Source of the DNA: an uncultured virus (IMG/VR IMGVR_UViG_3300024270_002235)
Lineage: Duplodnaviria; Heunggongvirae; Uroviricota; Caudoviricetes
Length of the DNA: 64,000 bases
Direction: 5' to 3' (one strand)
Virus record (IMG/VR): IMGVR_UViG_3300024270_002235
The translations under genes were made by a program, and so were the position numbers. The notes under the pieces are model-generated. The model searched no databases. It worked only from the letters and a program-made list of their open reading frames with translations, and was not told the origin of the DNA. Positions within the stretch are counted from its first letter, which is position 1, and every line of letters starts with the position of its first letter. Positions 291 to 50,000 of the stretch are shown here, in pieces.

Positions 291-333
291 ATGAATAAAT
301 ATAATTTATTTTTAGAAGGAGTTGAAAATAAAA

Positions 334-2940
334 ATGGCTGAAGAAAATAACAGAAAAAATAAACTTATTTCTGATAAACAGAATACATATTTTACAGAAA
401 ATAGAATTATGAAGGGTTCAGCTATTCCAACTGAGGGTACATATTTAACTGGTGATATGATTATTAATACGAATCCAGTTACATCTATAGACGAACCTAT
501 GTGGATTTGTAATCAAGGTGGTACACCTGGTGTATGGGGACCAGTAAGTAATACATCTACAACAATAGTTCCTAATTTTGCTAATATGAAAATAAGCAAA
601 GCTACTGTAGGTGGATTATTCTACGTAATAGCTGACGAATCCGATGCTGACGATGGTGGAGCTAAACCAGGATTTTATATAATAACTTCCGTTAAAGAAA
701 ATGAAAATGGTGTAAAAGTTCCAGCAACTTGGGATAAAATAAATAAAAAAGAAAATACAATACCTAAGTTATCATACGATCCTAGTATGCCTGAAGGTAC
801 TAAGATGTATTTAAATGATGATCAAGAATTGATTATAAAATTTAACTTCACAGCTAATACATTCGGTGATGGTAAATATCGTGTATATATCAATGGGTCA
901 TTAGCTAAATCATGGAGTGGTGCTAAAGGTAACGTTATAGTTAATTTAGGAAAAATAACATCAGATGGTACATATGAGATAACTGTTACTGCAACAGACT
1001 ATTTAACAGTTCCTGCTCCAGAAACATTAAGTTATAAAGTTATAGTTGGGGGATTGAAATTAACAAGTACATTTGAACAAACATTATTAACTGCTATATA
1101 TGAAGAAGGGGATATAATAGAATTCCCTTACATGGCTAGTTTAGCAGATGCTAGTCAAAGTATGAAAATGAGAATTAAATTAGTTAATAATGGAACGGGT
1201 GAAACTGTATATGATGATAGTTTTGCTTTAGAAGGGACATTCTTATCTACTATATGGAAATCACCTGTAATAAATAAAGCAGGTTTATATACTATTACAG
1301 CACAAGCATATACTGGAAGTTCAGTATCCGATACAACTGAAGGTACATTTAAATCTCATGAATTATCATATGACATAAGAGTTCTTAAAGCTGGAGAGAT
1401 AGCTATATTAGATGAGTCTAAAGGTATACAATATGATACTAACATGTATATATCAATACCATTTAAAATAGTCAGTAGAATTGCAGACTATTTTGTAATG
1501 AAAGGTCAAATGTATAAAGACGTTAATGGACACTTAGAGTTAGTTGCAGAAACTAGTAATACTGGTATATCTGCAAAAGTTAATGTTACTAACTATTGGT
1601 CAGTTGGTAAATTAGAAGCTGGTACATATAAATATATTATTAAAGGTTATACTGTCGATGGTGGTGTTGAATCAGATCCTGTTGAAGTTATGATGGAAGT
1701 TGTTGAATCACTTTACCAAAAAGTTCCTTTTATCGATAACGCAAACTTAATAGCTTACTTTGACGCTAATACTAAAGGGAACAATGACGGTAGTCCTAAT
1801 ATTTGGGGTAACTCATCTAGACACACAGGTGATAAATACAGAATATTATTACATGGACTAAATTACAGTTCAAATGGATGGAAACATGTAGATGAATCAA
1901 TACCTGATAGTGAAGATGGGGAAATGATGCTTAAATTCACTGGTGAATCATATGGTGAACTTGTTGAAATGGTTAATGGTGAAGCTAAACCTTATAGCCC
2001 ATTCTCAATATTTAAAATGGGTGGACAAAAAGGTATAACAATAGAAACTGCTATACGTACTAGAAATATAGGGGAATTGAATGCACGTGTAATGACATGT
2101 ACAAAATTCAATAATAATATGGAAAACCCATTAAATGAACCAGGAATTAATATAACATATGGTACTATGGCTATAGCGTCAAATGCTCAAGTAAATAGTC
2201 TTGGATTTATGGAAGATGAATGGGTTCATATAACACTTGTAGTAGATAAAGACATAAGAACATTTGAAAAAGTTGGTCAAAATATGATAGAAGACGTTAA
2301 CCCTACATATACACTACGTGTATATATAAATGGTGTTATGTGTTCATGTACTACTATAAATGAAGATGAAAGTAAAGAAAACTTCTTAGACGGTGCTAAA
2401 GAAGCTTATCCTTTAGTACTTAATGCATGTAGAATGATAGATGCTGCAGGAAATGTTTCATTTACTAATTTCGGTGAATGTGAAATAAAATTCATACGTA
2501 TTTACAATAGTTTCTTAAAATCATCAGAAGTTTTACAAAACTATGTATCACATATATACGATTCAGAAGAACAACAACTTGAAAACGATAAGAATAATAC
2601 AGACTTAGCTACATTACCTACTATAGTATTTAAAAGAAAAATAGGTGATGGATATGAAAACAATGCAACATTTGCAACATTACATTCAATCAAGGATAAA
2701 AAACAATCTAAATCAACATTCGTTGATTGTGTAATGGAGTATAACGATGGTGCTGGTAACATAATAGTTTATGATAACATGGATGTATATTTACAAGGTA
2801 CATCATCACTACAATACCCTGTTAAAAACTATAAGATTAAAGCTTGGGTGGATGAAGGAAAAACATCTAAATTAAAATTCGTTCCTCCAGGTATGGAAGA
2901 CGACTGGGTTAAAGATAGTACATATACATTAAAGTGTGAT
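334..2940 (+). CDS. exon 1 of a spliced ~2554-aa virion-type protein (Ig-like/LamG domains, start of CotH-like kinase domain)
   Basis: SD aaggag 316-321 then ATG 334; LamG-like (LIAYFDA...EWVHITLV...VYING...IKFIRIYN); CotH-like QGTSSLQYPVKNYKI...YTLKCD; ends in U at the 5' splice site. Confidence 0.8.
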
Positions 2941-3900
2941 TAAGTATAGTCTCACTATAAAAACCTTTTCTGATATACGGCGAAACTCCTGAGAAGGACA
3001 ACGCCTTGGAAGTTATTTAAACGTTTTAAAATGAAGGTGATAAATATGGATAATAGATTTTACATTTATGCTTATGTAAGATTAGACAAAAATAATTATT
3101 TTTATATAGGTAAAGGTACTGGTAATAGATGTTATGAACATCATACAGGTAGGAATAAACATTTTAAAAACATAATAAATAGTATAGACTATAAAATTGA
3201 AATATTATATGATAATTTAACTGAAAATGAAGCTCTTGAATTAGAAGTTAAGACTATTCATGATTTAGTGTTTAATGAAGGTTATAGTATTGAAATAAAT
3301 GGTTATAACACTAAAAATGAAAATCATCTTGTAAATCAAACATGGGGTGGTGAAGGTGTGAGTGGTTACACACATACCGAAGAAGAACGTAAAAAATGTT
3401 CGTTATTTGGTGAGAAAAACGGTATGTACGGTAAAAAAGGTGAGTTATCACCACATTATGGAAAAACATATACTGAAGAGCATAAAGAAAAAATACGTCT
3501 AGCTAGCCCTAATAGAAATGAAGTTTATTGTGTAGAGTTGAATAGAACTTTTAATTCATATAGAGAAGCTGAAAAAATATTACTAGAAGAATATAATATA
3601 AATTGTTCACATGCATCAATATCTGCAGTTTGTAGAGGAAAACGAAAACATGCGGGTAGAAATATAATAACAGGTGAACTTTTATATCTACATTTTGAAA
3701 ATAAAAACGTTTAAATTACACCAACAACGACTGAGCGAAAAGGCATTTATGATTAATGATGCAACAGTCTGATCTCTAGATATAATCTAACAATGAAACT
3801 AGAGAGGAATGGGCGGTCTGAAATAACGACCTAAAGAAGATCCATTCCCGCCATATTAATATATGGTCAGTAATTTATGAATAATGAAAGTAACAGAATG
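2941..3900 (+). mobile_element. group I intron 1
   Basis: P1 agtgtgat/gtctcact with U2940.G2949 wobble; P3 ccttttc/gaaaagg; P7 gactg/cagtc; terminal G3900; splicing restores K-C-D|Y-M-E in frame. Confidence 0.9.
3046..3714 (+). CDS. intron-encoded GIY-YIG homing endonuclease with NUMOD3-like DNA-binding tail
   Basis: FYIYAY...YFYIGKG...R, conserved E and N-x-x-x-GG, then HTEEE/NGMYGK/HYGKTYTEEHKEKI motifs; SD aaggtga favours ATG 3046. Confidence 0.85.
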   Translation: MDNRFYIYAYVRLDKNNYFYIGKGTGNRCYEHHTGRNKHFKNIINSIDYKIEILYDNLTENEALELEVKTIHDLVFNEGYSIEINGYNTKNENHLVNQTWGGEGVSGYTHTEEERKKCSLFGEKNGMYGKKGELSPHYGKTYTEEHKEKIRLASPNRNEVYCVELNRTFNSYREAEKILLEEYNINCSHASISAVCRGKRKHAGRNIITGELLYLHFENKNV

Positions 3901-4647
3901 TACATGGAACAATCACACAAAAACAATACGCCTACTGCAAGATTCTATAATCAAGTTATAGATGCTTTAGGAGGAATGTCACCTGCTAAGAGAGATGGTT
4001 ATCATGATGCTATAGACGGTTTCCCTTGTATAGTTTACTATAATGAAGGTGGAGTAGATGCTGATGGTAAACCAGCTGAAAATATATTAGTAGGTTCATT
4101 TATGTTTAATATAGATAAAGAGGGTAAAGAATTAGGATTCGAATGTGATTTATATGATGAAATCGGTGATTTAATCGGTAATGGTAAAAATAGTTGTATT
4201 TCATATGAAGCAACTGCCAATGCAAGTGACACAGCTGGATGTTTCTATAAATTATCTGAATCTATAGTAAACGTTTATAATTATTATTTAGAAGACTCTT
4301 ATAAAGAATATTTAGAAAAATATGGTCTTACTTCTGAAAAATGTACTATGGATCAATTTAAAGCAGGAATAAATGATGGAACTATAGAAGAATATATGAC
4401 ATTCGAAGAATTCTCTGCTGACTATAGTGAAACTGATTATATAATGTCAGACTTTGAAGCTAGATATAGTTATTGTGAAGATGACGAAGAAGCTACTTAT
4501 AAACCAATGATTGAATTAGTTAACTGGGTAAGTAACTCAATAGATAATGGTACATTTAAGGACGACTTAGAAAAACATCTTGATTTAACATACATGATAG
4601 CTTATTATCTACAAATGCACGTATTTACACAAGTAGATAACTGTGGT
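3901..4647 (+). CDS. exon 2 of the spliced CotH-like kinase protein
   Basis: YMEQSHKNN...AIDGFP...G.FMFNIDK...FEARY...QVDNCG; in frame with exons 1 and 3. Confidence 0.85.
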
Positions 4648-4734
4648 AAAGTTTATGCCTCAGTATAAAAACTTACTCTGATATACGGCGAAACTCCTGA
4701 GAAGGACAACGCCTTGGAAGATTATAATTGATAA

Positions 4735-4746
4735 AACAATTCTCTA
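4735..4746 (+). promoter_or_regulatory. late-type promoter inside intron 2 ahead of the endonuclease
   Basis: AACA attctc TA, 25 nt before ATG 4772. Confidence 0.5.
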
Positions 4747-4771
4747 TTATTAAACTAATGGAGTGATGTGA

Positions 4772-5473
4772 ATGGAAAAATGTTATTACGTATATCAATA
4801 CATTCGTTTAGATAACGGAAGTATATTTTATATAGGTAAAGGTAAAAATAATAGATATCTTAGATTGGATAGTAGAAATGATCATTTTATGAATATAATA
4901 AATTCTGTTGATTGTGTAGTTGAGATAATATATAATAATTTAACTGAGCGTGAGGCGTTGGAACTAGAAATGCAAACTATACATGATTTGGTATTTAATG
5001 AAGGTTATAGTATAGATATTCATGGTTTCAATGATAAAAGTAATGATAATTATTTGACTAATTGCACATGGGGTGGTGAAGGAACTAGTGGATTTTCTAT
5101 GAAACAATCACAAGAAACTATTGAGAAGAGAAGACTAAAGAACATTGGAAAGAAAAGAACTCCTGAACAAAAAGCACGAATGAAAGAAGCTTGTAGAAAT
5201 CGTAAGGAACCTAATAGAAGCAAAGAATCTATAGAAATACAATATTCTAAAAGTAGTTATACACAAGGTACACATGTACGTTGTATTGAACTTGATAGGG
5301 TATTTCCAAGTAAACGAAAAGCTTTAGAGTGTATGAAAGAGGAGTTTGGTATAGAATTTAATAAAAAAACCTTTACAAAGCATCTCAATCATGAATTGAT
5401 AAAAGGTCATGATTGGTATGGAGAAATATTGATAAATGGAGAATTGGTACAATTGCATTGGGAAATGATATGA
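4772..5473 (+). CDS. intron-encoded GIY-YIG homing endonuclease
   Basis: YYVYQY...IFYIGKG...R; N-terminal half closely similar to 3046..3714 (TIHDLVFNEGYSI, TWGGEG). Confidence 0.85.
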   Translation: MEKCYYVYQYIRLDNGSIFYIGKGKNNRYLRLDSRNDHFMNIINSVDCVVEIIYNNLTEREALELEMQTIHDLVFNEGYSIDIHGFNDKSNDNYLTNCTWGGEGTSGFSMKQSQETIEKRRLKNIGKKRTPEQKARMKEACRNRKEPNRSKESIEIQYSKSSYTQGTHVRCIELDRVFPSKRKALECMKEEFGIEFNKKTFTKHLNHELIKGHDWYGEILINGELVQLHWEMI

Positions 5474-5664
5474 TTATAATCACCAACAACGACTGAGCGA
5501 GTAAGGCTTGAACTTTCAAGTATGCAACAGTCTGATCTCTAGATATAATCTAACAATGAAACTAGAGAGGAGAGGTCATCAGTAACCAGACTGATTTAAG
5601 AAGAACCTTTCCCGCCATATTAATATATGGTCAGTAATTTATGAATAATGAAAGTAACAGAATG

Positions 5665-8600
5665 AAAAATAGTATGTGGGATACATGGGATGGAGTTAAA
5701 TTCTACCCTAGACCATACGATATGGATACACAAATGGGATTATCAAATACAGGTACTGAGATAATCCGTGTTGACTCAGAAATAATACCTTCATTATCTC
5801 CAACTTTATTGGATGGGGATAAAAACTTTATAGGATATAGTTATACAGATACTACAACAGATTTAAGATATATGAACTATAATACTAGAACTAGTAAATT
5901 ATGGAATGCATTCGGAACTGAATTTAAAGAAGAAATAAAAAAAGCATATACTACATTAAGAAATGCTAAAGTATATGACGTTGATAATATATTCAAAGCT
6001 ATTTCAGCTGACACTGATGACAAGATAGGAAAAATTTATTTCAATAAAGATGCTGCATCTAAATATTTATCTCAAACAACAGCATCCGACTCTACTTACT
6101 TACAAATGCTTCATGGTAATAGAGCACAAAAATATAAAAAATTCTTAAAAGAGAGATTAATATTCTTAGACACAGTATTTGGATACGAAGAATCAGCAGC
6201 ACAACCTGATACTTTAAATAGTTATATAGGATTACGTTCAGATGCTGCTTACGGACAAGGGGAAGGAACAACTTTACGTTGTTATGTTGGTGTAAGTGTT
6301 TATTCTCCACAGTATGTAACAATAACTATCGGTTCTGGAGCTGACGGTAAAGTTACTGGATATGTTGGACCTGAATCTAGATATAAAGACCCTGATACTG
6401 GAATAGAGTATGAAGGTGCATTATTCTCATTCCCTATAAAAGGTATAAATAAAGAGATGGGTATAACTGGAGCAGGCAATATTAAGCAAATTAATAGATT
6501 ACAAACACTTAACTTAACTGAAGCCAGAATAGAAAAAGCACTTAAATTACTTGAACTAGACGTTTCATATTCAAACCGTATGGAAGGTCTAAAAATAGGT
6601 AACAATAAATACTTAAGACATCTTAACTGTACTAACTCATACAGATTAGGTACAGCAACAGAATCACAAACTCTAGATTTATCGAACTGTGTTAACTTAA
6701 AAACAGTTGATTTATCTTACACTAAATTTACAGGGGTAATGTTCCCAACAGATACAGTTCTTAACTCTATAAACTTAACTAGTAGTAGTATTAAAAACGT
6801 ATCTATAGACGGTGCAGAATTCCTAGATGACATAAAAATAACAAACTGTGAAAATATTAATAAATTTGAACTTAATAGATGTAACAGAATAGCAGTTGTT
6901 GACGTTGCTAACTCAACAATACAAAACTTCATAGTAACTAACTGTGAAAATGTTACAGAAGTAAACTTATCTGGTTGTAAATCAATAGCTGGATTCGACG
7001 TTACTAACAGTTATAATATAGTAACATTAAATATGTCAGGAAATACAAGTCCTGTAATGAATGACCTTAAATTATACTCAATGTATAAATTAAATAAACT
7101 TATAATATCACAAACAGATACTGTTCATACATTAAGATTACCTAAATATTTAAATGAAGAAGAAGCATTCAAAGCTGTAAATGGTGATCCTAATGCTAAA
7201 TTATGGGATAATTTAACTTACTTAGATGCATCGACTTCAAGTATACGAAAAATACAATATGGATCAGCTGATGTCGACGATGTTGTATTAGACATGAGTC
7301 AATTGAAAAAACTTACTACACTTAAACTAAGTAACTGTACTTATTTTACAGAAATAAGAAATATCAATTATACTGGTCCTTTAGCATCATTATTCTATAA
7401 CTGTAGAGGTCTTACTAAGATAACAGGTGTATTAACTAACGGAAATACTAGTATAAATTCTATGTTCCAACAATGTTTCGTTTTATCAGACATAGATGGT
7501 TTATCTTTAAACTTTACTGGTGTAACTAGTGCTAATAGTACATGTGATAGATGTTTCCGTATGAAAACACCTATGCTTAAGAAAATACTATATGCATGTG
7601 GTGAATCATTAACTAGTGCGACAGGTATGTGTCATATGGCAGGTCTTGACGGTTATGAAACTATATTAGGTACTGCAGAAGATACTACTAGAACAATACC
7701 ATCGGATTTATTTGCTATGAATACTAAATTACAAAACGTTTCAGGATTCTTCGATATAACTGGATACACAACAGTTCCTGGAGATTTATTTGACCCATGC
7801 GGTGCAACACTAACTAACTGTAATAATACATTCGGTAGAATGAGAAATTTAACAACAGTAGGAGCAAGTTTATTACATAATAAACCTAATTTAACTACTG
7901 TATCTCAAATGTTTGCATCTGACGGAAGTCTTACTGATTATATAAATGAAAGTCCTGATATATTTATTGGAAGTTATAATATTACTTCAACAAAACAAAT
8001 GTTCAACAATTGTACTAACTTAGCAGTTTCTGAAGAACTTGGATTAGGAGAAATGATGAAACCGTTAACTTATTTAACTGATGCTAGTTTTATGTTCTTT
8101 GGTTGTTCTAATAACCTTAACTGTGAAATACCTGATGGATTCTTATCAACAAATACTAAACTTGTTAAGATAAATGGTATGTTCCAAAACTGTAGTAAAT
8201 TACCAAAATTACCAGCAAGTTTATTTAACAAATTAGGAGGTACTGCTAAATTCCCTAATTTAACAAAAGCTGTAGGTGTGTTTGGTAACTGTACATCAAT
8301 GGAAGGTATTGTTGAGTCAACTTTCTTCTTAGGAGCTGAAAACTTACTAAATATAGGTATGGACCATGAGGATAATACTTATATGGGAACTACTAGATAT
8401 ACATCTAGAGGTATATTTGAAGGAACTCAAATAACTGGTTATCATGAAACATTCTTAAACGTTGTTCCTAAAGTGCAAAATGTTTCAGGAATGTTTAGAA
8501 ACTGTACTTCTCTTAAAGATTGTCATTACTATAAAGGTTCACAAGTTGAAACTCGTAATAATGGTATAAGTGAAGACTTATTTATAGAAAATAAACTTTT

Positions 8601-9975
8601 ATCTGATACATATTACATGTTCGCTGGATGTAGTAGTATTGAAGGACATATTCCTAGAAATTTACTTGTAAATTCTAAATCGTTACTAAAGAACGTTTCA
8701 TATATGTTCCTTAACTGTTCATTATTAACAGGTGTAAATTTAGATGCTACTAGCGATAATGATGTGCAAACTGGTATATGTGCAGAATGGTTTAAAAATG
8801 GTATAGCGTTAACTAACGTGGCAGGATTTATGCAAGGTTGTAGTTTATACACAGGACAAATACCTGATGATATGTTAGAAGGCTGTGCTAGTTTACAAAG
8901 AACTGATAATCTATTTAACGGTTGTAAAAATATTGTAGGATCTATTCCTCTAGGATTATTTGATGCGTGTAGAAAAACTATCACTACTACAGCAAGTATG
9001 TTTGCAAGTTGTGAAGGATTAGATCAACCTATACCTGTTGGACAATATAACGAAGTTGAAGGTATAGTAGAATACGAACTTGTAGCTAAAGGAACTGAAG
9101 GAGCTATGCAAGTTGTTGAAGTAATGGAAGACCCATTCACACAAGTTGCTTATTCAGACGTTGTTACATTATCACCAAACTTAGCAACTATAATCAACGC
9201 AAGTGGTAATTATTACGTATTACCTAAGGTAGGACCAAAAACTGAAGTTGTCGTTCCAGGATTACTTGCAAACTGTATCCAATTAACTTCAATAGCAAGT
9301 ATGTTCTATGCATGTAAGAAAATAACTGGTGGTATACCACACGATTTATTATTTACAGAAAATAACAATATTAAATATACTAAATTACAAGATGTTTCAA
9401 GATTATTCTATGACTGTGAAAAAATTTCTGAACTTTATCATGAAACTGAGACTGGTATAGATTATATATGTAGTCCAATGTTATTTGATAAGTGTCCAGA
9501 ACTTGTTAACTGTTCATCAATATTCCGTGCAATGCCTGGTATACCAAGTACTGCGAATATACATCCACAAATGTTTAGTAAACAAAATAAAGTTACAAAT
9601 ATTTCTTGTTTATTCAGATGTACAAATGTTACTGGAGCAGTTTCTCCATTATTATTTGCTAACTCAATAAATACTATAACAAGTGCAGCTCAAATGTTTG
9701 CATTCTCAAAAGTTAGTAGTATAGGACCTAACTTCTTAAATGGTGGAGGTAGAAATACTAAGCTTAAAAATATTTATGGTATGTTCTACGGTTGTTCATC
9801 TCTTGAAGGTACTGCACCTGAATTCTGGAATGGTGCTAAATTCACCGCTATGGGTGGAGCAGACTCTAACGGATTCGCAGGAGCACTTAGAGGTTGTACT
9901 AAATTAACAAACTACGCTACTGCACAGGCAGCAAATACTGCATGGACTGCAGACCAACCAATATATGGAGAATAA
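5665..9975 (+). CDS. exon 3: end of CotH-like kinase domain + LRR + BspA-like repeats
   Basis: KNSMW...FYPRPYDMDT (CotH metal-binding motif), then LxxLDLS-type LRRs and MF..C..L repeats. Confidence 0.85.
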   Translation, partial: KNSMWDTWDGVKFYPRPYDMDTQMGLSNTGTEIIRVDSEIIPSLSPTLLDGDKNFIGYSYTDTTTDLRYMNYNTRTSKLWNAFGTEFKEEIKKAYTTLRNAKVYDVDNIFKAISADTDDKIGKIYFNKDAASKYLSQTTASDSTYLQMLHGNRAQKYKKFLKERLIFLDTVFGYEESAAQPDTLNSYIGLRSDAAYGQGEGTTLRCYVGVSVYSPQYVTITIGSGADGKVTGYVGPESRYKDPDTGIEYEGALFSFPIKGINKEMGITGAGNIKQINRLQTLNLTEARIEKALKLLELDVSYSNRMEGLKIGNNKYLRHLNCTNSYRLGTATESQTLDLSNCVNLKTVDLSYTKFTGVMFPTDTVLNSINLTSSSIKNVSIDGAEFLDDIKITNCENINKFELNRCNRIAVVDVANSTIQNFIVTNCENVTEVNLSGCKSIAGFDVTNSYNIVTLNMSGNTSPVMNDLKLYSMYKLNKLIISQTDTVHTLRLPKYLNEEEAFKAVNGDPNAKLWDNLTYLDASTSSIRKIQYGSADVDDVVLDMSQLKKLTTLKLSNCTYFTEIRNINYTGPLASLFYNCRGLTKITGVLTNGNTSINSMFQQCFVLSDIDGLSLNFTGVTSANSTCDRCFRMKTPMLKKILYACGESLTSATGMCHMAGLDGYETILGTAEDTTRTIPSDLFAMNTKLQNVSGFFDITGYTTVPGDLFDPCGATLTNCNNTFGRMRNLTTVGASLLHNKPNLTTVSQMFASDGSLTDYINESPDIFIGSYNITSTKQMFNNCTNLAVSEELGLGEMMKPLTYLTDASFMFFGCSNNLNCEIPDGFLSTNTKLVKINGMFQNCSKLPKLPASLFNKLGGTAKFPNLTKAVGVFGNCTSMEGIVESTFFLGAENLLNIGMDHEDNTYMGTTRYTSRGIFEGTQITGYHETFLNVVPKVQNVSGMFRNCTSLKDCHYYKGSQVETRNNGISEDLFIENKLLSDTYYMFAGCSSIEGHIPRNLLVNSKSLLKNVSYMFLNCSLLTGVNLDATSDNDVQTGICAEWFKNGIALTNVAGFMQGCSLYTGQIPDDMLEGCASLQRTDNLFNGCKNIVGSIPLGLFDACRKTITTTASMFASCEGLDQPIPVGQYNEVEGIVEYELVAKGTEGAMQVVEVMEDPFTQVAYSDVVTLSPNLATIINASGNYYVLPKVGPKTEVVVPGLLANCIQLTSIASMFYACKKITGGIPHDLLFTENNNIKYTKLQDVSRLFYDCEKISELYHETETGIDYICSPMLFDKCPELVNCSSIFRAMPGIPSTANIHPQMFSKQNKVTNISCLFRCTNVTGAVSPLLFANSINTITSAAQMFAFSKVSSIGPNFLNGGGRNTKLKNIYGMFYGCSSLEGTAPEFWNGAKFTAMGGADSNGFAGALRGCTKLTNYATAQAANTAWTADQPIYGE

Positions 9976-27293: not shown

Positions 27294-28505
27294 ATGCGTA
27301 GAATTACACCTGAAGAGAAAGCTTATTTATTATCACTTAAACCTGAAGATATAACTTATGAACTTGGTATGGATTTATTTGCAGACCATATTAAAAAAGT
27401 TGATGGAAAAGTAGTAGAAGTGAAATCTAAATTTGAACCAGATGATAGATTCTTATTAAAAGCTGGAGAATATATAAATAAAGAAGATGTTATAACTACA
27501 GTTGGTTCTTTTATATTTAATAAGTTTATAATAGAAGCTAGATTTGGCGTTCATTTAGGTTATATAAACGATGTTATAGATGCTGATGGACTAAAAAGTC
27601 TTGAAAGTAAATTATCTAAATTATTATTAGATGATAAAATAACTACAGTGGATTTCGGTGATTATTTTGATAGAATACAATGGTTAGGAATGCAATTCCA
27701 TGAACCATTAGCAGCATCATTTACAATGAGAGGATTAAAACCAGTTCCTGCAGTTATGAAACGTAAAGCTGAGCTTATTAAAGAAAATAAAGAAGCCTTA
27801 GAAAAAGGTGACGTTATGGTAATGTCAGCAATCGAAAAAGAATTAGTTAAACTTGCTGAAAAAGAAATAGGTGACGACCCTGCAATGGATTTATATTATT
27901 CAGGAGCAAGGGGTTCTATATCAAACAACTATAAACAGCTTAGTATAGTAAAAGGACCAGTATTCAATAAAACTATAGGTAAGTATCAATTTATAGAAAA
28001 TAACTTATTTGATGGTATAAGTAAAGAAGAGATAGCTGCATCTGGTACAAATACAGTAAATGCACAATATCCTAAATCTTGTGGTACGGCAGTATCAGGA
28101 TATAAAGCTAAACAAGTTTCAAGTTTAGGTCAAGCGGTTGTATTAAGAAAAGACGTACAAGATTGCGGTTCTAAAGGATATGTTGAAATAGTTATACCAC
28201 CATCAATGAAATCTAAATTTATGTATAGATATATAATGGATAATGGAAAAGCTGTTTTATTAGATGATGATAGTATAGGTAAATATGTTGGGAAGAAAGT
28301 TAAATTAAGATCGATTATGTATTGTGGTTGTGATTCAGGAGTTTGTTTAACATGTGCAGGAAGATTATTTGAAAAATTACAAATAGATTCTATAGGGTTA
28401 ACAACATCAACACTAACAGGTGCGTTATTAAACTTAAAGATGAAAGCAATGCATGATACATCAGTTAAAACTAATGAAATCAATTTAGACGATATGACAT
28501 TCTAG
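27294..28505 (+). CDS. rpoC: multisubunit RNA polymerase beta' C-terminal half (probably virion RNAP)
   Basis: SGARGS, bridge helix GTAVSGY..K, Zn site DCG...RSIMYC...VCLTCAG, trigger loop IGL...LNLKMKAMH. Confidence 0.85.
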   Translation: MRRITPEEKAYLLSLKPEDITYELGMDLFADHIKKVDGKVVEVKSKFEPDDRFLLKAGEYINKEDVITTVGSFIFNKFIIEARFGVHLGYINDVIDADGLKSLESKLSKLLLDDKITTVDFGDYFDRIQWLGMQFHEPLAASFTMRGLKPVPAVMKRKAELIKENKEALEKGDVMVMSAIEKELVKLAEKEIGDDPAMDLYYSGARGSISNNYKQLSIVKGPVFNKTIGKYQFIENNLFDGISKEEIAASGTNTVNAQYPKSCGTAVSGYKAKQVSSLGQAVVLRKDVQDCGSKGYVEIVIPPSMKSKFMYRYIMDNGKAVLLDDDSIGKYVGKKVKLRSIMYCGCDSGVCLTCAGRLFEKLQIDSIGLTTSTLTGALLNLKMKAMHDTSVKTNEINLDDMTF

Positions 28506-30167: not shown

Positions 30168-31622
30168 ATGATAATAGAAAGAAATAATGGGATTGAAAAG
30201 AATGGATTTATGTTACAAATTTCTAATATAGATAAAGAGGCAGAATTAGATTTAAAAGCAGGAAAAGCATTCGTTGTCTATGAACCGATAAAAGATAAGA
30301 AGACAACAGATGGTAGTTATAATAAAGGAGGAATCCGTTCGGATTTCTTCTATAGTGAAATGTCAAGTGAGAATGCATTTAAAGAAAGATATAGTTGTGA
30401 ATGTGGATATCTAGAAGGTAAATCTCATGAATCATCTATATGTCCATATTGTAGAAGTAATGTTAGATTAGTTGATATAGATTTAGAAAAATTTGCTTAT
30501 ATTAAAATCAAAGATTATTATATAATTCATCCAGCATTATATTTATACCTTAATAATATAATGGGTGAAAAGAATAAGCAATCTATATTAGAGAATATTA
30601 TACAACCACCTAAATTTGTAGATACAGATCAATTTGGTAATCCATTATTAGATGATGAAATTGAATTTGATAAAGATCAACCATTTAAGAATATAGGAAT
30701 GATAGAATTCCAAAGAAGATTTGATGAGATATTAGATTATTATGCTGAAAAGAATAAAAGAAATTCTAATATGGAAGGTAATGTTGCATTTGTAAAAGCT
30801 AATAAAGATAAATTATTCTTCCAATATATTCCAGTATTTAGTTCAGCATTAAGATTTGCAATGGTTCAAAATGAAATCAACTTTGTAAATGGAACTGATA
30901 AGATATACAATATGATATTTAGTTCAGTATCTAGAATGAATAATTCAAATGATGCTTTATCAGTAGATAAGAAATTACCATATATACAAAAGAAAGTAAA
31001 TGAACTATATGAGAAAATGTTCAGTACAATTAATAAGAAAGATGGGTTTATAAAATCAGGTGTGTTAGCAGGAAGAATGAATTACACATCAAGAAACGTT
31101 ATAATATCAAATCCAAACTTAGCAGCAGATGAAATTATATTATCATATATATCATTCTTAGAGATGTATAAATTTGAGATAATACAAAAATTAGCAAGTA
31201 CACAAAACATAACTGAAAGTCAAGCATATAGTGAATGGTATATGGGTTGTATAAATTTCAGTGAAAAGATATATAAGATAATCAAATTAATGATAGCACA
31301 AGATTTAACATATTGCTTAATTAACCGTGCTCCAACTATAGACGTAGGTTCTATATTACAAGTTAAGATTGTAGATGTAACAAAAAGAGTAGATGATTAT
31401 ACAATGGCAATATCTCTTATGATCCTTAGTGGTCTTAACGCAGATTTTGATGGCGACAACTTAACAATAACTAAGCTATCAGCTAAAGATCAAATCAAAG
31501 CAACTAGAAAGTATAATGCAAGATTGTTCTTAATGGTATCTCATAATGATGGTTTATTAAGTGGTAACATGATGCCAATAAAAGACCTAGCAATAGGTTT
31601 AAGTCATTTCTGTAGAGTATAG
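30168..31622 (+). CDS. rpoC: multisubunit RNA polymerase beta' N-terminal half (probably non-virion RNAP)
   Basis: Zn finger CECG...CPYC, GRMNYTSR.VI, INRAPT, catalytic NADFDGD. Confidence 0.92.
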   Translation: MIIERNNGIEKNGFMLQISNIDKEAELDLKAGKAFVVYEPIKDKKTTDGSYNKGGIRSDFFYSEMSSENAFKERYSCECGYLEGKSHESSICPYCRSNVRLVDIDLEKFAYIKIKDYYIIHPALYLYLNNIMGEKNKQSILENIIQPPKFVDTDQFGNPLLDDEIEFDKDQPFKNIGMIEFQRRFDEILDYYAEKNKRNSNMEGNVAFVKANKDKLFFQYIPVFSSALRFAMVQNEINFVNGTDKIYNMIFSSVSRMNNSNDALSVDKKLPYIQKKVNELYEKMFSTINKKDGFIKSGVLAGRMNYTSRNVIISNPNLAADEIILSYISFLEMYKFEIIQKLASTQNITESQAYSEWYMGCINFSEKIYKIIKLMIAQDLTYCLINRAPTIDVGSILQVKIVDVTKRVDDYTMAISLMILSGLNADFDGDNLTITKLSAKDQIKATRKYNARLFLMVSHNDGLLSGNMMPIKDLAIGLSHFCRV

Positions 31623-42707: not shown

Positions 42708-45700
42708 TTAATGCTTAACTTTTAAAATTACAAATACCATATTAGATGTTGACATTCCATTTAATATTATTTGTTCTCCATCAAAAGTCCAAGTCCAGTT
42801 TGCTTTAGGTACAGCATCCCAGTTTTCTAAACCTTCTCCTTTTACTTGTACTAAACTTCCATCATATGGTATTAATGCATCATATCTGTTTAAAGCCTTG
42901 TGGTCTTCAACTAATCTTAAAGCATAAAGTCTGTAGTTATCTTTTTCTATGAATTGAGTCCACCAAGCCTCATATTCTGCATTAGTAATATTACCGTTGT
43001 TATATTCTTCTTCAACGAAATCCATTTCTTCAAAAAGTTTAGGAGCCGTTTCACGATCGAATACATACATTCCAGGAACAGATTGTTTTATTTCATGTAT
43101 CCATTCATAGTCTATACCATATTTCATATCTCGTAATTCTTGTTTAGCCATTGCTAATTCCTCCTTAAGAGCTTGAATTTGTTTTATAAGGTCACTATCA
43201 TCAATAGTTTCGTCTACTTTTTCAAGCATTTGAATATTTCCGATAACAACGTTAGTTTTAGCTATAATACCATGAACATCAACATCTCCATCAACACCGT
43301 TATTTGTACCTTTATTGAATCTGTTAATAGTACCTCCATTTAATACTACTTCACAATCTTCTATAATACCGTTAACCGATTTATCTTCAGTTTCTCCTCC
43401 ACAGTAGAATCCTTGTACTAAACCGTCATTTAATATAATTTTAGCATTATTTACTATACCTCTGTTTGTAGTTTGAACACAAGTATATTTTCCTCCGTTT
43501 ATTTCTACTACTGCATTTCTAGAACATCCATTAGAACCTCCAGCAGTCAACCAACCTACTTCACAATTAATTAATTTTATATTAATTGTATCAGCAATAC
43601 CGAATCCTTGAGAACCACCGAATAATAATGAACAACCAGTCATATTTTCAGCTTTTATTATAACATCGTGAACTACATTCACTCTAGCTGGTTTTCCATT
43701 TACTGACGCACCACACCAACCAGCACCGATTATTTGTTTCATAACACAATCTTTAATATCTATTTCAGCATTTCCAACTATACCTTCAAAGTAGCTACCA
43801 CCACAAATACCTTTGATATTAACTCCTCTAGCAACCACTTTAGTAGCTGGTAAACTTCTCTTAATATTAACATTATTTGGTCCGTATCCTCCGAATACCA
43901 TTAATTTACCAGCATCTGCTGCAGGTACATTTATATACTCTAATCGTTCATTCCACATATAACTACAGATTATTTCATCTTCAGGTAATTCCGCACTATA
44001 TTTATGGTCTTTATTTACATTAACGTACATAGGTATACCACATGCAAATAAGAATTTACTAGTTGGATATGCATCTATATCCATTAAGTAAGGTTTTTCT
44101 TCATCTATTAAAGCTCTTAATTCCGAATCATCATAGCTTATTTGTTCTATATCTTCTTTAGTGAAATAGTCTACACCTTTAACAGGAGTATATCCAGCTT
44201 CACCTTGAGGTCCAACTTCTCCTTGTATACCCTGTTCACCTTGAGGTCCAACTTCACCTTGTGGTCCTTGTGGTCCAACAGGTCCTTGTTCACCTTGAGG
44301 TCCTTGAAGACCTTGTTCACCTTGATCTCCTTTAGGTCCTTGTGGTCCTACTATTTTACCAAGATCAACAAATGAATCCGTTCCATTAAATACTATTAAA
44401 TGACCATTATCTTCTATAACATAACAATCTCCTGCTTGTTCACCAACTATATCTTTTATATCTGCTTCAGTAGGTATAACACCTATTATATGTATAGAAG
44501 TACCATCAGCACCTCTTTCACCTTGTGGTCCTTGAGGTCCTTGTTCACCTTGTGGTCCAACTTCTCCTTGAGGTCCTTGTGGTCCAGCAGGTCCTTGTTC
44601 TCCTCTTTCACCTTGTGGTCCTTGAGGTCCAACTTCACCTTGTGGTCCTTGTTCTCCTCTTTCACCTTGTGGTCCTTGAGGTCCAACTTCTCCTTGATCT
44701 CCTTTTTCACCTTGAAGTCCTTGTTCTCCTCTTTCACCTTGTGGTCCTTGAGGTCCAACTTCTCCTTGATCTCCTTTTTCACCTTTTAAAGAAGCTACGA
44801 AATCTTCTACAGTTCCAGCTTCATTTCCTTCTAAAGTTTTCCAAGCCATATAAGCAGAGTGTCCTTGTGGTCCTTGTGGTCCTTGAGGTCCAACTTCTCC
44901 TTGTGGTCCTTGTTTTCCTTCTGGTCCTCTTTCACCTTGAGGTCCTTGTATACCTTGTTCACCTTGTGGTCCTATAGGTCCTTGTGGTCCAGTTTCTCCC
45001 ATAGGTCCTTGTTCACCTTGTAAACCTTGAGGTCCTTGTGGTCCTATTTCACCTTGGATACCTTGAGGTCCTTGTGGTCCTTTTTCACCTTGGTCACCTT
45101 TATCTCCTTTTTCACCTTTAGGTCCTTGTTCACCTTGTGGTCCTTGGTCTCCTTTTTCACCTGGTAATCCTTGTGGTCCTTGAACACCTTGTTCACCTTT
45201 TTCTCCAGGTATACCTTGTTCTCCTCTTTCACCTTGAGGTCCTTGTTCTCCTTTTAAAGAAGCTATAAAATCTTCTACAGTTCCAGCTTCATTTCCTTCT
45301 AAAGTTTTCCAAGCCATATAAGCAGAGTGACCTCTTTCACCTTGTGGTCCAACAGGTCCTTGTGGTCCCATAGGTCCTTCTGGTCCAGCAGGTCCTATTT
45401 CACCTTGTGGTCCTTGAACACCTTGTTCACCTTTTTCTCCCATAGGTCCTTGTATACCTTGAGGTCCTCTCATTGATTCTATAAATTCTTCTACAGTACC
45501 TTCTTCATTTCCTTCTATAGTTCTCCAAGCTTGATATGCAGAGAATCCTCTTTCACCTTGTATACCTTGAGGTCCTTGAGGTCCAACTGCTCCTTGAGGT
45601 CCTTGAGGTCCAGCAGGTCCTCTCATTGATTCCATATATTCTTCTACAGTTTTATTAGCATTTCCTTCTAATGTTTTCCATGCTTGATATGCAGAGAATC

Positions 45701-46913
45701 CTTGAGGTCCTTGTGGTCCCTGAGGTCCTTGTTCCCCTTGTGGACCTTGGTCTCCTTTTGGTCCTTTTATTTCACCAGCATCAACAAATTTATTTGGTTC
45801 AACGCAAACGTATAAGTGTCCGTTTGCTTTTATGATGTAACCGTTACCAACTTCTTCATCAGCAAGGTTATCTAAATCACTAACAGCATCTAATACACCA
45901 ACTATTTTAACAGAAGTACCATCAGCACCTCTTTCACCTTTTTCTCCTCTAGGTCCTTGTATACCTTGAGGTCCTTGTGGTCCCACTTCACCTTGTATAC
46001 CTTGTACACCCTGAGGTCCTTGAGGTCCTATTGGTCCAACTTCTCCTTGGTCCCCTTTTTCTCCTCTTACACCTTGTATACCTTGAGGTCCTTGAGGTCC
46101 CATAGGTCCTATTAGACCTTGTTCACCTTGAGGTCCTTGATCTCCTTTAGGTCCTCTTTCACCTTGAGGTCCTTGAAGACCTTGAGGTCCTTGTTCACCT
46201 TTAGGTCCAACTTCCCCTTGAGGTCCTTGTATACCTTGGATACCTTGATCTCCTTTAGGTCCAACTGGTCCTTGAGGTCCTTCTGGTCCTTGTATACCTT
46301 GAGGTCCCATAGGTCCTATTGGTCCTTGAAGACCTTGTTCACCTTCTGGTCCTGCTTTACCTTGAGGTCCTTGTGGTCCCATTTCACCTTGAGGTCCTTG
46401 TATACCTTGTTCACCTTGGTCCCCTTTATCACCTTTTAAACCTTGAGGTCCTTCTGGTCCCATAGGTCCTTGTTCTCCTCTTGGTCCTTGTGGTCCAACA
46501 GGTCCGACTAAACCTTGTTCACCTTTAGGTCCTTGTATACCTTGTTCACCTTGTGGTCCAACTGGTCCCATAGGTCCTTGAGGTCCAACTAAGCCATCTA
46601 ACCAATCTAATTCATTACCTTCATAACCATTTTCAACTGCTATATCAAATGCAGATTTTCCCATGGCTATTTCAGCATATTTATCTATTAACATTCCTTC
46701 TACTTTTATACCATTTATGACTTTTGATTTTAAAGAGTTTACTACATAGAATTTCTGTTCATCTTTAACATAGAACATCATACCGACATATGGTAATTCA
46801 ATCGTTTCAACATCTGCGATTGTATCTATTCTTGATCTTGCGTCTATAGGTGTATCTTTACCAGAAGGCATTAAAGATCCACCGATTACGACGTTATTTC
46901 TTTTATCAGCCAT
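42708..46913 (-). CDS. collagen-like fibre protein
   Basis: Long G-X-Y tracts (GPQ/GEQ) interrupted by G.SAY.AW...EGN...T.E.F..S.G modules; Gly-rich beta-helix-like C-terminal region. Confidence 0.9.
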
Positions 46914-47026: not shown

Positions 47027-50000
47027 CTAAAGGAATCTTTCTCCTATATGAACATGTTTAACTCTTATATTATTTCCTAATCCTAAAGATTGGAATAATT
47101 CATCAGGTAAATGAATAGCTTTGATATTACCACCACGAATAACAATTTTTATGTTTCTAGCATCAGCAGTAGTTTTATCTAATGAAGCATGTTCTTTAGT
47201 ATTATGTAATGCATAGAACTTAATACTATCTTTATTTGTTCTATTAGGTACTTTTGATAATAATAAGTTGATAACATCTGCACTACAATTATTAACATTA
47301 ACTAAAGATAATTTATCAGCTCCGCCAAACATATGTTCAATTGTTAAGTTTGGATTTATGTTACAGTTTGAAATATTTAATGTTTCTAATGCTTCACAAT
47401 TCATAAATAAAGCACTTACGTTAGTAGCCTTACTAAAATCCCAATTACTTAAATCCAATTCTTTGAAAGGACTTCCACCAAATAATCCATACATTGCAGT
47501 AACATTACTTGTATTCCAATTAGTAACATCTACTGATTCTAGTACTTTATTATTATAGAATACAAATGTCATGTCAGTAACATTATCAGTTTTAAAATGT
47601 CCAACTTCTAAATGTTTTAATGACTTACAAGAATAGAATGCACAATATAAAGTTATAACATTAGAAGTATCCCAATTTCTAGTATTAATTCTAGTAACAT
47701 TTTCAGCTTTAGCAAATATATTATTCATACTTGATATATTTTCTTTGATATCTACATATAAAACATCTAATAATGATAAAATACCACTTTCTGTAAACGC
47801 ACTACTTGAATCACCAAATACTATTCTCGTAGGTCTCTTATCAGATTTATATTTTAATGTTCTAACTACTCTACCATCAGCTTTCACATCATCAATAACT
47901 TCATAGTTTGATTGTGGATAACTTGGTGTTATAGGTAAGAAGTTTTCATATACATTACTATCAAAGATGTATTTAACCATTATAGGCTCATAGCTTAAAT
48001 TCCAGTTTTTAGCTTGTAATGTTTCTGTATCTAATAATGCTGGGTCTATATCATAGTAAGCAAGAGTACCAGCTTCTTTACCTGTTCTGTTAGGTAAATG
48101 TGGAATTATTGAATTAGTTGTATTTAGGTCATTTGATGTTATTTTAATTAATTCAGGAGTATTTGTTAATATATAACTCATATTAGTTACATTACTAGTA
48201 TCAAAATTACTTATATCTAATGAAGTTAATAATTTACAATTCTCAAACATAGCATGCATAGTATTTACATTACTAGTATCAAAATTACTTACATCTAATG
48301 AAGTTAAATTATTACAACCATGGAACATAGCTTCCATACCAGTTACATTACTAGTGTCGAAATTACTTACATCTAATGAAGTTAATGAATTACAGTTTAT
48401 AAACATACCGTTCATAGCAGTTACTTTACTAGTATCCCATTTACTTACATCTGATGAAGTTAAACTAGTACATTGTTCAAATGTCCAATCCATTTTAGTT
48501 ACATTGCTAGTATCAAAATTACTTACATCTAATGAAGTTAAACTATGGCATTTAAAGAACATTGCTGTCATAGTAGTTACTTTACTAGTATTAAAATTAG
48601 TAGTATTTATATATTTCAAATTAATACAACCAGCAAACATATAATCATTGTTTGTTATATAGTTGGTATCCATATCACATAATTCAATTAAGCAAGTATA
48701 TCTAGGATAAAGTGTATTATCCCATCTACCAAATCTAACTATAGTAGGCATAGTGCCATCAACATCTTCTATATTTCTTGTTATTACACCCTTACTATCA
48801 TTTGTATCCACAACAACATATTTATCCACACCAAAGTCATAATTGAATATAGGTATTAAGTCCTCATAGATATTACTGTCGTATTTATAAGAAGCAATTA
48901 AGTATCCAAGGTGCCAGTTTTTACCAGCCAATAAAGCAACTGTTTCTGCAGACACTTGGTCTTTATTAGGCATTATTATACGTCCAGTAGTAGTCGAACT
49001 TCTATCTGGAAGATATTGAACTAATTTATCTAATGTGTCTATTTCATTCATATAAATTCTTTCTGCTTTTTCTGTTTTTGTAAAGAAATTTTCTATTGCA
49101 CAATCATCATGTATAACAATATTATTTAAGTTTATAGTAGTAGCATTGTCTAAACGAGCTAACATCCATTCAGCTCTAATAACATTACTCATATCAAAAT
49201 TACTGATATCTAATGAAGTTAAAGAATAACAATCTCCAAACATACTAACCATATTATTTACTTTGCTAGTATTCCATTTACTTAAATCCAATGAACTTAA
49301 TTTTCTACAATGTCTAAATACAGATTCCATATGAGTTACATTACTAGTATCCCAATTACTTACATCTAATCCATCTAGTTCATAGCAATAATGGAATAAT
49401 GCAAGCATATTAGTTACATTACTAGTATTCCATTTACTTACATCTAGTGTTTGTAACACATTACAATTTTCAAACATCTTAGTCATATCAGTTACTTTAC
49501 TAGTATCAAAATTACTTACATCTAATGAAGTTAATGATTGACAATCTTTGAACATATATCCCATACTAGTTACGTTTCTAGTATCAAAATTACTTACATC
49601 TAATGAAGTTATTAAATAACAACTAGCAAACATACCTTCCATGTATTGTACGTTAGTAGTAATAAAGTTTTCTATTCCTACTATTTCAGTTAATTTTTGA
49701 CAGTTAGTAAACATATAACCCATATTTTTTACATTACTAGTATTAAAATTACTTACATCTAATGAAGTTAAATTAAAACATCTATCAAACATACTTTTAG
49801 TTGATGATACGTTAGATGTGTTCCATGTTTCTAATCCTGTTATATTTGTTACAGCCATCATATCATAGAATGTCCATTGTAAACTAAATACATTTCTAAT
49901 ATCAAAATTACTAACATCTAGTGAAGTTAATGATTTAGCTGACGCAAATGCTGATTCTATACCAATTCCCACTAGAGGTACTGTAGGATATTTTGTTATA

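Follow-up and report, generated by a model that had tools for sequence, protein, structure and literature searches.

Two related group I-type introns in the CotH-like domain of a putative virion protein gene from an uncultured gut jumbo-type phage

The uncultured virus of the class Caudoviricetes represented by IMG/VR record IMGVR_UViG_3300024270_002235 was analysed over a stretch of 64,000 nucleotides, which is referred to in the following as the window. The window carries a gene of about 2,555 codons with predicted Ig-like, lectin-like, CotH-kinase-fold and leucine-rich repeat (LRR) parts, and this gene is interrupted by two inserts of group I intron type, each of which contains an open reading frame (ORF) of its own. 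It is very probable that this is a single virion or tail-fibre-like gene of a gut jumbo phage, split by two introns of the same family that bring along their own homing endonuclease genes (HEGs). The assignment stands on the homology of the inserts, their anatomy and covariation, an allele without introns and the host-domain fold.

Gene callers report the gene as three ORFs of 873, 263 and 1444 aa. A related virus record (G001; 202,636 bases, with 34% of the window's sampled words in common) carries it as one ORF of 2525 aa. Matches to window positions 2000-2942, 3901-4650 and 5674-6998 abut in G001, the DNA of which is uninterrupted at both insert sites, with junctions that are exactly the predicted splice sites. 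Excision at G3900 and G5664, bounds that equal the G001 junctions, restores the reading frame, and joining the window exons by script yields 2558 aa free of stops, with TTG 322 as the start of the count; this protein aligns to the G001 ORF in one high-scoring segment pair with 69.8% identity over 2551 columns. Exon 1, for which a phrog_9915 match and weak Ig-like and ConA-like matches were found, is collinear with this uninterrupted ORF. The junction peptides read ...YTLKCD/YMEQSH... at site 1 and ...QVDNCG/KNSMWD... at site 2. At site 1, the final exon base is C in the intron-less G001 allele versus the U required for P1 in the intron-bearing allele; a relative of the first HEG was not found in G001. 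A protein search yielded 319 homologues, and among the 120 matches listed, most are uninterrupted and about 2,400-2,800 aa long. The initial annotation had proposed a comparison with intron-less homologues and had named three independent genes as the alternative; as G001 carries the gene as one frame without both inserts, three independent genes are refuted.

The two inserts share four exact blocks, as determined by script: 44 nt (2969-3012 = 4677-4720), 20 nt (3719-3738 = 5481-5500), 50 nt (3759-3808 = 5522-5571) and 56 nt (3845-3900 = 5609-5664), the last of which forms the 3′ ends of both introns including the final G. Between the blocks, the aligned sequences are divergent. Pattern scans detect only two copies of the core blocks in the 64-kb window, and in none of 100 shuffles were the 43-nt and 50-nt patterns matched twice, confirming the homologous inserts with identical blocks that had been noticed initially. 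Position -1 is a U.G pair and position -4 a U-U mismatch in both P1 helices, which differ by compensated changes at -2 and -7; the 5′ exons end in TGTGAT and TGTGGT, respectively, with 6 of 8 bases in common. The suggestion of one P1 geometry with retargeted guides is thereby upheld. Single-sequence folds reproduce the P1 hairpins (z -3.5 at a minimum free energy of -7.4 kcal/mol for intron 1; z -2.6 for intron 2), and the U.G geometry of P1 is also read in other members of the family. Both P3 stems, which had likewise been proposed to be compensatory, pair in all seven positions.

From 5′ to 3′, each insert presents P1, an A-rich joiner, P3, J3/4, P4 enclosing P5, and P6 with the ORF in its loop, followed by P7 (GACUG/CAGUC) enclosing the 3′ strand of P3 and P8, and then by P9 (7 bp), P9.1, P9.2 and a 3′ tail with a terminal G. 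When folded alone, the 3′ domain of either intron forms P7, P8, P9, P9.1 and P9.2 (z -2.8 and -3.5 for the two). The sequences of P1, P3, P8, P9.1 and the inner hairpin of P9.1 differ between the copies with the pairing kept. P7 is known here as a 5-bp helix, and P2 and P7.1/7.2 were found in neither core. The two inserts combine a 5′ exon U in a U.G pair of P1, a terminal G and the P3/P7 pseudoknot order with covariation, as is expected of group I introns, and they are homologous introns of this type with retargeted guides, as initially described. Feature coordinates are compiled in Table 1.

Table 1. Coordinates of the exons, introns, endonuclease ORFs and ribozyme elements in the window
Feature	Coordinates	Strand	Description
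Exon 1	322..2940	+	start TTG 322 or, more likely, ATG 334; ends ...YTLKCD
Intron 1	2941..3900	+	960 nt, group I type, phase 0; absent from G001 at exact bounds
HEG1	3046..3714	+	222-aa GIY-YIG-like ORF in P6 loop of intron 1; in-frame upstream ATG 3031
Exon 2	3901..4647	+	249 aa, 747 nt; central part of CotH-like domain; ends ...QVDNCG
Intron 2	4648..5664	+	1017 nt, group I type, phase 0; absent from G001
HEG2	4772..5473	+	233-aa GIY-YIG-like ORF in P6 of intron 2
Exon 3	5665..9975	+	1436 aa; starts KNSMWDTWDG...RPYDMD/TQMG; remaining CotH-like domain, then LRR/DUF285 repeats
P1, intron 1	2933..2956	+	exon 2933-2940 AGTGTGAT pairs with guide 2949-2956 GTCTCACT; U2940.G2949 wobble
P1, intron 2	4640-4647 / 4657-4664		exon ACTGTGGT pairs with guide GCCTCAGT; U4647.G4657 wobble
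P3, intron 1	2964-2970 / 3737-3743		CCTTTTC / GAAAAGG, 7/7 complementary
P3, intron 2	4672-4678 / 5499-5505		CTTACTC / GAGTAAG, 7/7 complementary
5′ core, intron 1	2964..3012	+	P3 5′ strand, J3/4, P4 (GGCG/CGCC), P5 hairpin with GAGA loop, start of P6
3′ core, intron 1	3719..3900	+	P6′, P7 3729-3733/3765-3769, P3′ 3737-3743, P8, P9 3773-3779/3799-3805
3′ core, intron 1, remainder			P9.1 3806-3812/3842-3848 with inner hairpin, P9.2, terminal G3900
P7, intron 2	5491-5495 / 5528-5532		terminal G of the intron at 5664

The introns are members of a family with 106 or more copies: a pattern spanning P7-J7/3-P3′-P8-J8/7-P7′ occurs in 106 IMG/VR stretches (L011-L116) from many environments. In an RNAalifold prediction from 22 3′ halves, comprising the two window copies and 20 loci picked for similar architecture, 16 of 27 predicted pairs show compensatory changes, located in P8, P9 and P9.1. 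P3 was tested in 33 loci with a located 5′ core plus the two window introns: out of 20 distinct P3/P3′ combinations, 17 pair 7/7 and 19 at least 6/7 (mean 6.8 of 7), compared with a mean of 5.2 and a maximum of 5.9 for shuffled partners (1000 trials); one of the imperfect cases reflects the indexing of window intron 1, which is 7/7 by reading. The P3 strands are separated by 53-990 nt, and the family thus holds both ORF-less and ORF-bearing members. P4 is invariant in the family, while a P5 hairpin of at least 3 bp with varied stems is present in 23 of 29 sequences, the other six being cut short by the pattern. RNAalifold on a MAFFT alignment of the 5′ halves recovered P4 alone because P1 and P5 were misaligned; P5 was, therefore, folded for each sequence. 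With GenBank phage DNA, neither a search for near relatives using 2500-6200 nor one for distant relatives using the 3′ core gave a match, and exact 27-nt and 20-nt intron blocks were not found in IMG/VR.

Which genes the family interrupts was assessed on translated 3′ exons from 55 distinct loci, of which 30, selected among the longer and non-redundant ones, were compared with the PHROGs at E<=1e-10. Major head protein (5), portal (2), tape measure (2) and phrog_14959 (7) were assigned, with 14 exons falling into no family and none of the 30 into a nucleotide-metabolism gene. The family phrog_14959 comprises the giant CotH-like proteins and is also matched by the CotH-like piece of G001. Since the annotated hosts are mostly virion genes, a structural host gene is not unusual, and the opposite statement of the initial annotation is not supported; spliced introns in phage capsid and tail genes have also been published (PMC3706429).

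The interrupted domain was modelled with AF2 on residues 760-1330 of the G001 homologue, which stands in for the window protein, using 41 aligned homologues (pLDDT 84.4, pTM 0.86). The model matches the CotH kinase structures 5jd9/5jda in Foldseek (E 5e-8, probability 1.0) and in VIA-align (Z 27.7, rmsd 3.5 Å, 345/358 residues; next fold at Z 11.7); judging from this model, the domain would have the CotH atypical-kinase fold throughout. A PDB sequence search with the G001 domain returned chance matches alone, and the search of the PDB with profile A2 was swamped by LRR matches. In the 41-sequence alignment, the invariant columns are K94 and D96 upstream and M98 and E99 downstream of site 1, and D336, N337 and G339 upstream and K340 and N341 downstream of site 2. 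Site 2 lies within a D-x-x-x-x-N loop (D336...N341), which is followed 22-24 residues on by an invariant D-x-D (D358/D360, piece numbering). The catalytic residues of Bacillus subtilis CotH are D228 and D251 (PMC7821199), to which D336 and D358/D360 may be equivalent on account of their spacing, and LKCD may have the role of the Lys motif. The insertions are, thus, situated in conserved CotH-kinase motifs as previously suggested, both sites lying within invariant columns of a CotH-fold domain, and the additional suggestion of kinase activity under selection would fit these invariant residues. Related domains occur in GenBank phages, namely in gp353 of Bacillus phage G, in "internalin-like" proteins of crAss-like phages and in a "CotH kinase family protein" of a Klebsiella prophage.

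Both HEG ORFs are intact. HEG1 and HEG2 are 41% identical overall (E 3e-52), with 60% identity in the first 112 residues and 28% in the remainder. HEG2 alone matches phrog_314 "homing endonuclease" (E 2.6e-11), the entries of which carry GIY-YIG/I-TevI-like domains (PMC11878797, Table 2). For HEG1, there are 161 relatives at E<=1e-5, many of them with NUMOD3. An alignment of 41 HEG sequences reveals Y6, Y8, Y20, G22, E67 and N97 as invariant and R28 as nearly invariant, and the invariant Tyr, YxG, Glu and Asn follow the GIY-YIG order; we take these residues to be equivalent to those of I-TevI. Pfam reports PF22945 below threshold (E 0.014 and 0.073) together with NUMOD3, and NCBIfam yielded nothing useful. 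A search of the PDB with the HEG profile gave a GIY-YIG protein (E 0.034) and the I-TevI DNA-binding domain (E 0.043), and the best Foldseek matches of an AF2 model (pLDDT 84.6, pTM 0.46) are GIY-YIG nucleases (9u75, E 0.018; UvrC GIY-YIG domains, ~0.4), none reaching E<=0.001. HEG1 and HEG2 are probable GIY-YIG homing endonucleases.

The CotH-like domain is, from sequence comparison, a hot spot for the intron family, with at least three further sites in relatives. Sixteen short proteins among the listed homologues were inspected at their N-termini. In four protein clusters and in the window's own protein, KN... comes after an N-terminal leader encoded by the intron, a sign of the same 3′ intron end at site 2. 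A further cluster has a near-identical leader followed by TQMG..., and five others start at or just before TQMG, indicative of a break that follows the D-x-D motif (site 3; 5730/5731 of the window, where exon 3 is uninterrupted). For two clusters, the start lies immediately past site 1 and the sequence continues across sites 2 and 3, suggesting that site 1 alone holds an intron. When the G001 protein was used in tblastn, 13 of the 106 IMG/VR loci were matched. An ORF-less family intron lies exactly at site 2 of a locus encoding a protein of 26-32% identity (L078); introns at site 3 are found in L054/L085 (by script) and L072/L075 (by eye), four codons beyond site 3 in L033 (phase 1) and L038/L106/L080 (phase 2), and after a conserved VG about 60 codons past site 1 in L031 and L058. 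Placements by the splice-site script are approximate for some loci, and for about 6 of 17 loci there was no solution (L078, L060, L063, L065, L096, L099 and L116 are named); L078 and L072/L075 were placed by eye on the basis of P1 pairing and exon translation. The splice pair proposed by the script for L072 and L114 was dismissed as implausible. The hot-spot pattern fits the published statement that residues critical for function are often encoded at homing sites (PMC3984707).

The stretch is contained, wholly or in part, in 20 sequencing runs, which by record are faecal, gut and bovine-gut metagenomes. Logan contigs from RNA runs X14 and X18 and from DNA runs X1 and X9 were compared with 2500-6100. 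The joint from 2940 to 3901 (ends TA..TG) is present in one contig each of X14 (186 nt on the shorter side) and X18 (89 nt) and was not found in X1; the joint from 4647 to 5665 (ends AA..TG) is present in a single contig of X18 alone (36 nt). These joints confirm the insert bounds to the base. The exon-1 contig of X18 has variant letters in common with a DNA contig of X9, and intron contigs occur in the RNA runs too. Neither an exon-skipping joint from 2940 to 5665 in the contigs of the four runs nor, in the rows shown, an RNA contig across an exon-intron boundary was seen, and absence from contigs proves nothing in both cases. One X18 joint, from 5553 to 3792 within the shared 50-nt block, was read as a repeat-induced assembly join. 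Other contigs of run X1 match the core block 2959-3012 alone, with unrelated flanks, and a variant with a 2-nt insertion is present at higher depth; such contigs point to further family members in that metagenome.

The final eight codons of either intron, in frame and beginning with ATG, read MNNESNRM (3877-3900 and 5641-5664) and also head split homologues in public protein sets. With this leader at the intron 3′ ends, callers begin the ORFs of exon 2 and exon 3 within the intron. One might, thus, think of unspliced, free-standing nuclease cassettes that leave either three separately translated pieces, starting at ATG 3877 and 5641, or a pseudogene, considering the three called ORFs and the shared leader. 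This is, however, very improbable: the insert bounds equal those of a continuous homologue to the base, the ribozyme structure is conserved with covariation, a kinase fold cut in its catalytic loop could not function as separate chains, exact exon-exon joints, albeit ambiguous ones, occur in RNA contigs, and no Shine-Dalgarno sequence was seen by eye before 3877 or 5641.

Several results count against two group I introns with nuclease genes in a CotH-like host. The joint from 2940 to 3901 is also contained in DNA run X9 (2 contigs, 39 nt), in which loose ends at 4650, 5665 and 5674 correspond to site 2 DNA lacking the intron; as alleles without introns circulate in DNA form, the RNA joints do not prove splicing and may come from intron-less strains. 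The Rfam model RF00028 has no match in the window at gathering (50 bits) nor on the plus strand at E<=10 (2800-5800, and the 3′ half alone), none at gathering in 20 family loci, and solely a minus-strand match of 16 bits in nine loci, including ORF-less members, at E<=5. The cmscan check proposed in the initial annotation, thus, came out negative, and the group I assignment is based on the anatomy, on covariation and on the allele without introns; what is lowered by this failure is membership of the Rfam model, not group I-like working. P7 is invariant in the family set, where variation could not show because the search pattern fixed P7. As to the host domain, Pfam CotH (PF08757, gathering 23.8 bits) attains 13.4 bits (E 0.054) at the C-terminal end of exon 2, has no match on G001, and passes gathering in 5 of 18 homologues, four of them preselected for a precomputed match, at profile positions ~125-320 alone. 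The HEGs are not matched by Pfam GIY-YIG (PF01541), and all their sequence and fold matches in the PDB have E values of at least 0.018.

According to the proposed mechanism, each intron RNA would fold into a P1-P9.2 ribozyme, in which P1 would form between the last eight exon bases and the internal guide and would place a U.G pair at the cleavage site. A guanosine would attack at the 5′ site and the freed exon would then attack after the terminal G, whereby the exons would be rejoined in frame and the motifs LKCD-Y and DNCG-KN restored. The endonuclease would cut intron-less alleles, e.g., of the G001 type, in co-infecting relatives, and repair would copy the intron in (homing), the recognition sites being the invariant catalytic-motif codons. 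The targeting of such codons is the usual strategy of homing nucleases. What we infer are the self-splicing, the activity and specificity of the nucleases, the kinase activity and, as discussed below, the recombination history.

Splicing may, alternatively, be non-autonomous in genuine introns, either because a phage or host protein cofactor is required or because one of the two is decaying. The cores are small, with P2 and P7.1/7.2 not found, and AT-rich (~35% G+C), and in Bastillevirinae, 4 of 8 spliced genes were spliced solely in infected cells (PMC11878797). Given that every helix is kept in both cores with compensatory changes and that the HEG ORFs are intact, we regard non-autonomy as a possible but rather unlikely case. 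Quite speculative is the idea that the twin introns are functionally coupled instead of being independent parasites, in which case their identical 3′ modules, maintained by recombination, and their near-identical 5′ exon ends might allow the 5′ splice site of intron 1 to be joined to the 3′ splice site of intron 2 (exon skipping). Jointly with this, and with equally little likelihood, an in-frame skip would create a second virion isoform without the 249-aa kinase-like core, and, in broader terms, the Rfam-invisible family might have radiated over at least five catalytic-motif positions in CotH-like domains.

Concerning the origin of the pair, the initial annotation had argued for intragenic duplication with guide retargeting, of which the retargeted guides stand, while the duplication is weakened. 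A recent copying of intron and HEG from one site to the other, e.g., by reverse splicing, with guide and P3 changed afterwards, would account for the complete identity of the 44, 20, 50 and 56-nt blocks; with exon ends alike in 6 of 8 bases, the old guide could partly pair with the new site, and the introns agree in phase (0) and in architecture. It is nonetheless unlikely. HEGs of 41% identity, and of 28% in the C-terminal half, speak against a simple recent event, and relatives closer than the partner exist elsewhere, with up to 98% identity for HEG1 and one at 84% for HEG2 (the relatives search was seeded with HEG1, and the count of 106 versus 14 is biased accordingly). The site-2 3′ end is present in four other clusters, two clusters suggest a site-1-only intron, and an ORF-less family intron occupies site 2 in a ~30% identical homologue. 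Furthermore, segments of 100% identity adjacent to segments of ~30-60% are not explicable by uniform divergence after one duplication. The P9.1 inner hairpin of intron 2 matches those of L033 and L078, not that of intron 1.

On balance, we favour two site-specific lineages of one family, the core segments of which were recently homogenised by recombination between the window copies. The DNA-binding halves of the endonucleases and the guides would have diverged, while segments of the ribozyme core would have been made identical by recombination within the genome. An old transposition through partial guide pairing between the similar 5′ exon ends is plausible.

The window as a whole is of the jumbo phage type and encodes, besides virion structural proteins and a dCMP deaminase, RNA polymerase beta-like subunits that are split. 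Separate RNA polymerase beta-subunit matches, to phrog_2962 and phrog_2987, lie at 27294-28505 and 30168-31622 on the plus strand, and the 1.6 kb between these ORFs contains small ORFs and no obvious nuclease. Two separate beta-like ORFs are also what is seen in those jumbo phages that have split multisubunit RNA polymerases. On the minus strand, 47027-62203 is occupied by one ORF of 5058 aa, which is among the largest phage ORFs and consists mostly of 78-nt (26-aa) repeats, apparently of the BspA/DUF285-type LRR, and 42708-46913 by a 1401-aa collagen-like tail-fibre protein with a 9-nt (G-x-y) periodicity and very strong PHROG tail-fibre matches. Just 5′ of the start of the intron-bearing gene, two inverted repeats (~181-205 and 221-262, within 181-262) resemble, by eye, terminators or regulatory hairpins. 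Among the homologues of this gene, some proteins, P0034 among them, have an N-terminal Mtd_N (major tropism determinant) domain, which fits a receptor-binding or tail-fibre role of the family.

In terms of annotation, the gene is split into three called ORFs, and public protein sets hold many leader-headed fragments. The intron family, frequent in the virion genes of uncultured phages, would merit its own covariance model; because the standard Rfam model misses it, phage annotation pipelines will under-call it. Where invariant motifs are used as homing sites, intron sites flag constrained residues in uncharacterised giant phage surface proteins.

Among known systems, a similar intron pair flanks a 23-nt exon in orf142 of phage Twort, where exon skipping occurs (Landthaler & Shub 1999, in PMC10136302), whereas here, the middle exon has 747 nt, each intron has its own HEG, the host gene is a different one and a skipping joint was not seen in the contigs. 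The introns resemble phage introns with I-TevI-type GIY-YIG nucleases (PMC3984707, PMC11878797) in having the ORF in a peripheral ribozyme loop, in targets that encode critical residues, and in a GIY-YIG-like N-terminal part followed by NUMOD3-type DNA-binding modules; they differ in that the HEGs are unmatched by PF01541, the similarity to I-TevI is marginal (E 0.04-1) and the host is a virion protein instead of td, nrd or a polymerase. Virion genes are also the hosts of the capsid and minor-tail introns of Cluster J mycobacteriophages, which were likewise found through intron-less relatives (PMC3706429); those, however, have been proven by RT-PCR to splice, occur once per gene and belong to phages of an unrelated host phylum. 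Polymerase and terminase genes of Bastillevirinae contain two or three introns per gene, with most ribozymes split by a nuclease ORF and one ribozyme side often missed by covariance models, as is comparable to the situation here; in contrast, they are detectable with IA2/IA3 models and reside in replication and packaging genes (PMC11878797). With the Bacillus cereus CotH kinase (5jd9/5jda), the host domain shares a domain-wide fold match, and its D-x-x-x-x-N loop and D-x-D may, by spacing, correspond to D228 and D251 of B. subtilis CotH, in contrast to an identity of 13-14% and its location inside a phage protein of ~2,550 aa with LRR repeats, for which kinase activity is predicted. It is already established that a phage gene may contain several introns, similar pairs among them, that nuclease ORFs reside in peripheral loops and that introns insert at catalytic codons (PMC10136302, PMC11878797, PMC3984707). 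A literature search combining CotH, phage and intron gave no introns in phage CotH-like genes among the matches listed, supplements being outside its scope. The present case is, therefore, a real but fairly ordinary selfish element, adding conceptually little on group I introns and homing, to which the class of host gene, the multi-site hot spot and an intron family missed by the standard model contribute modest novelty.

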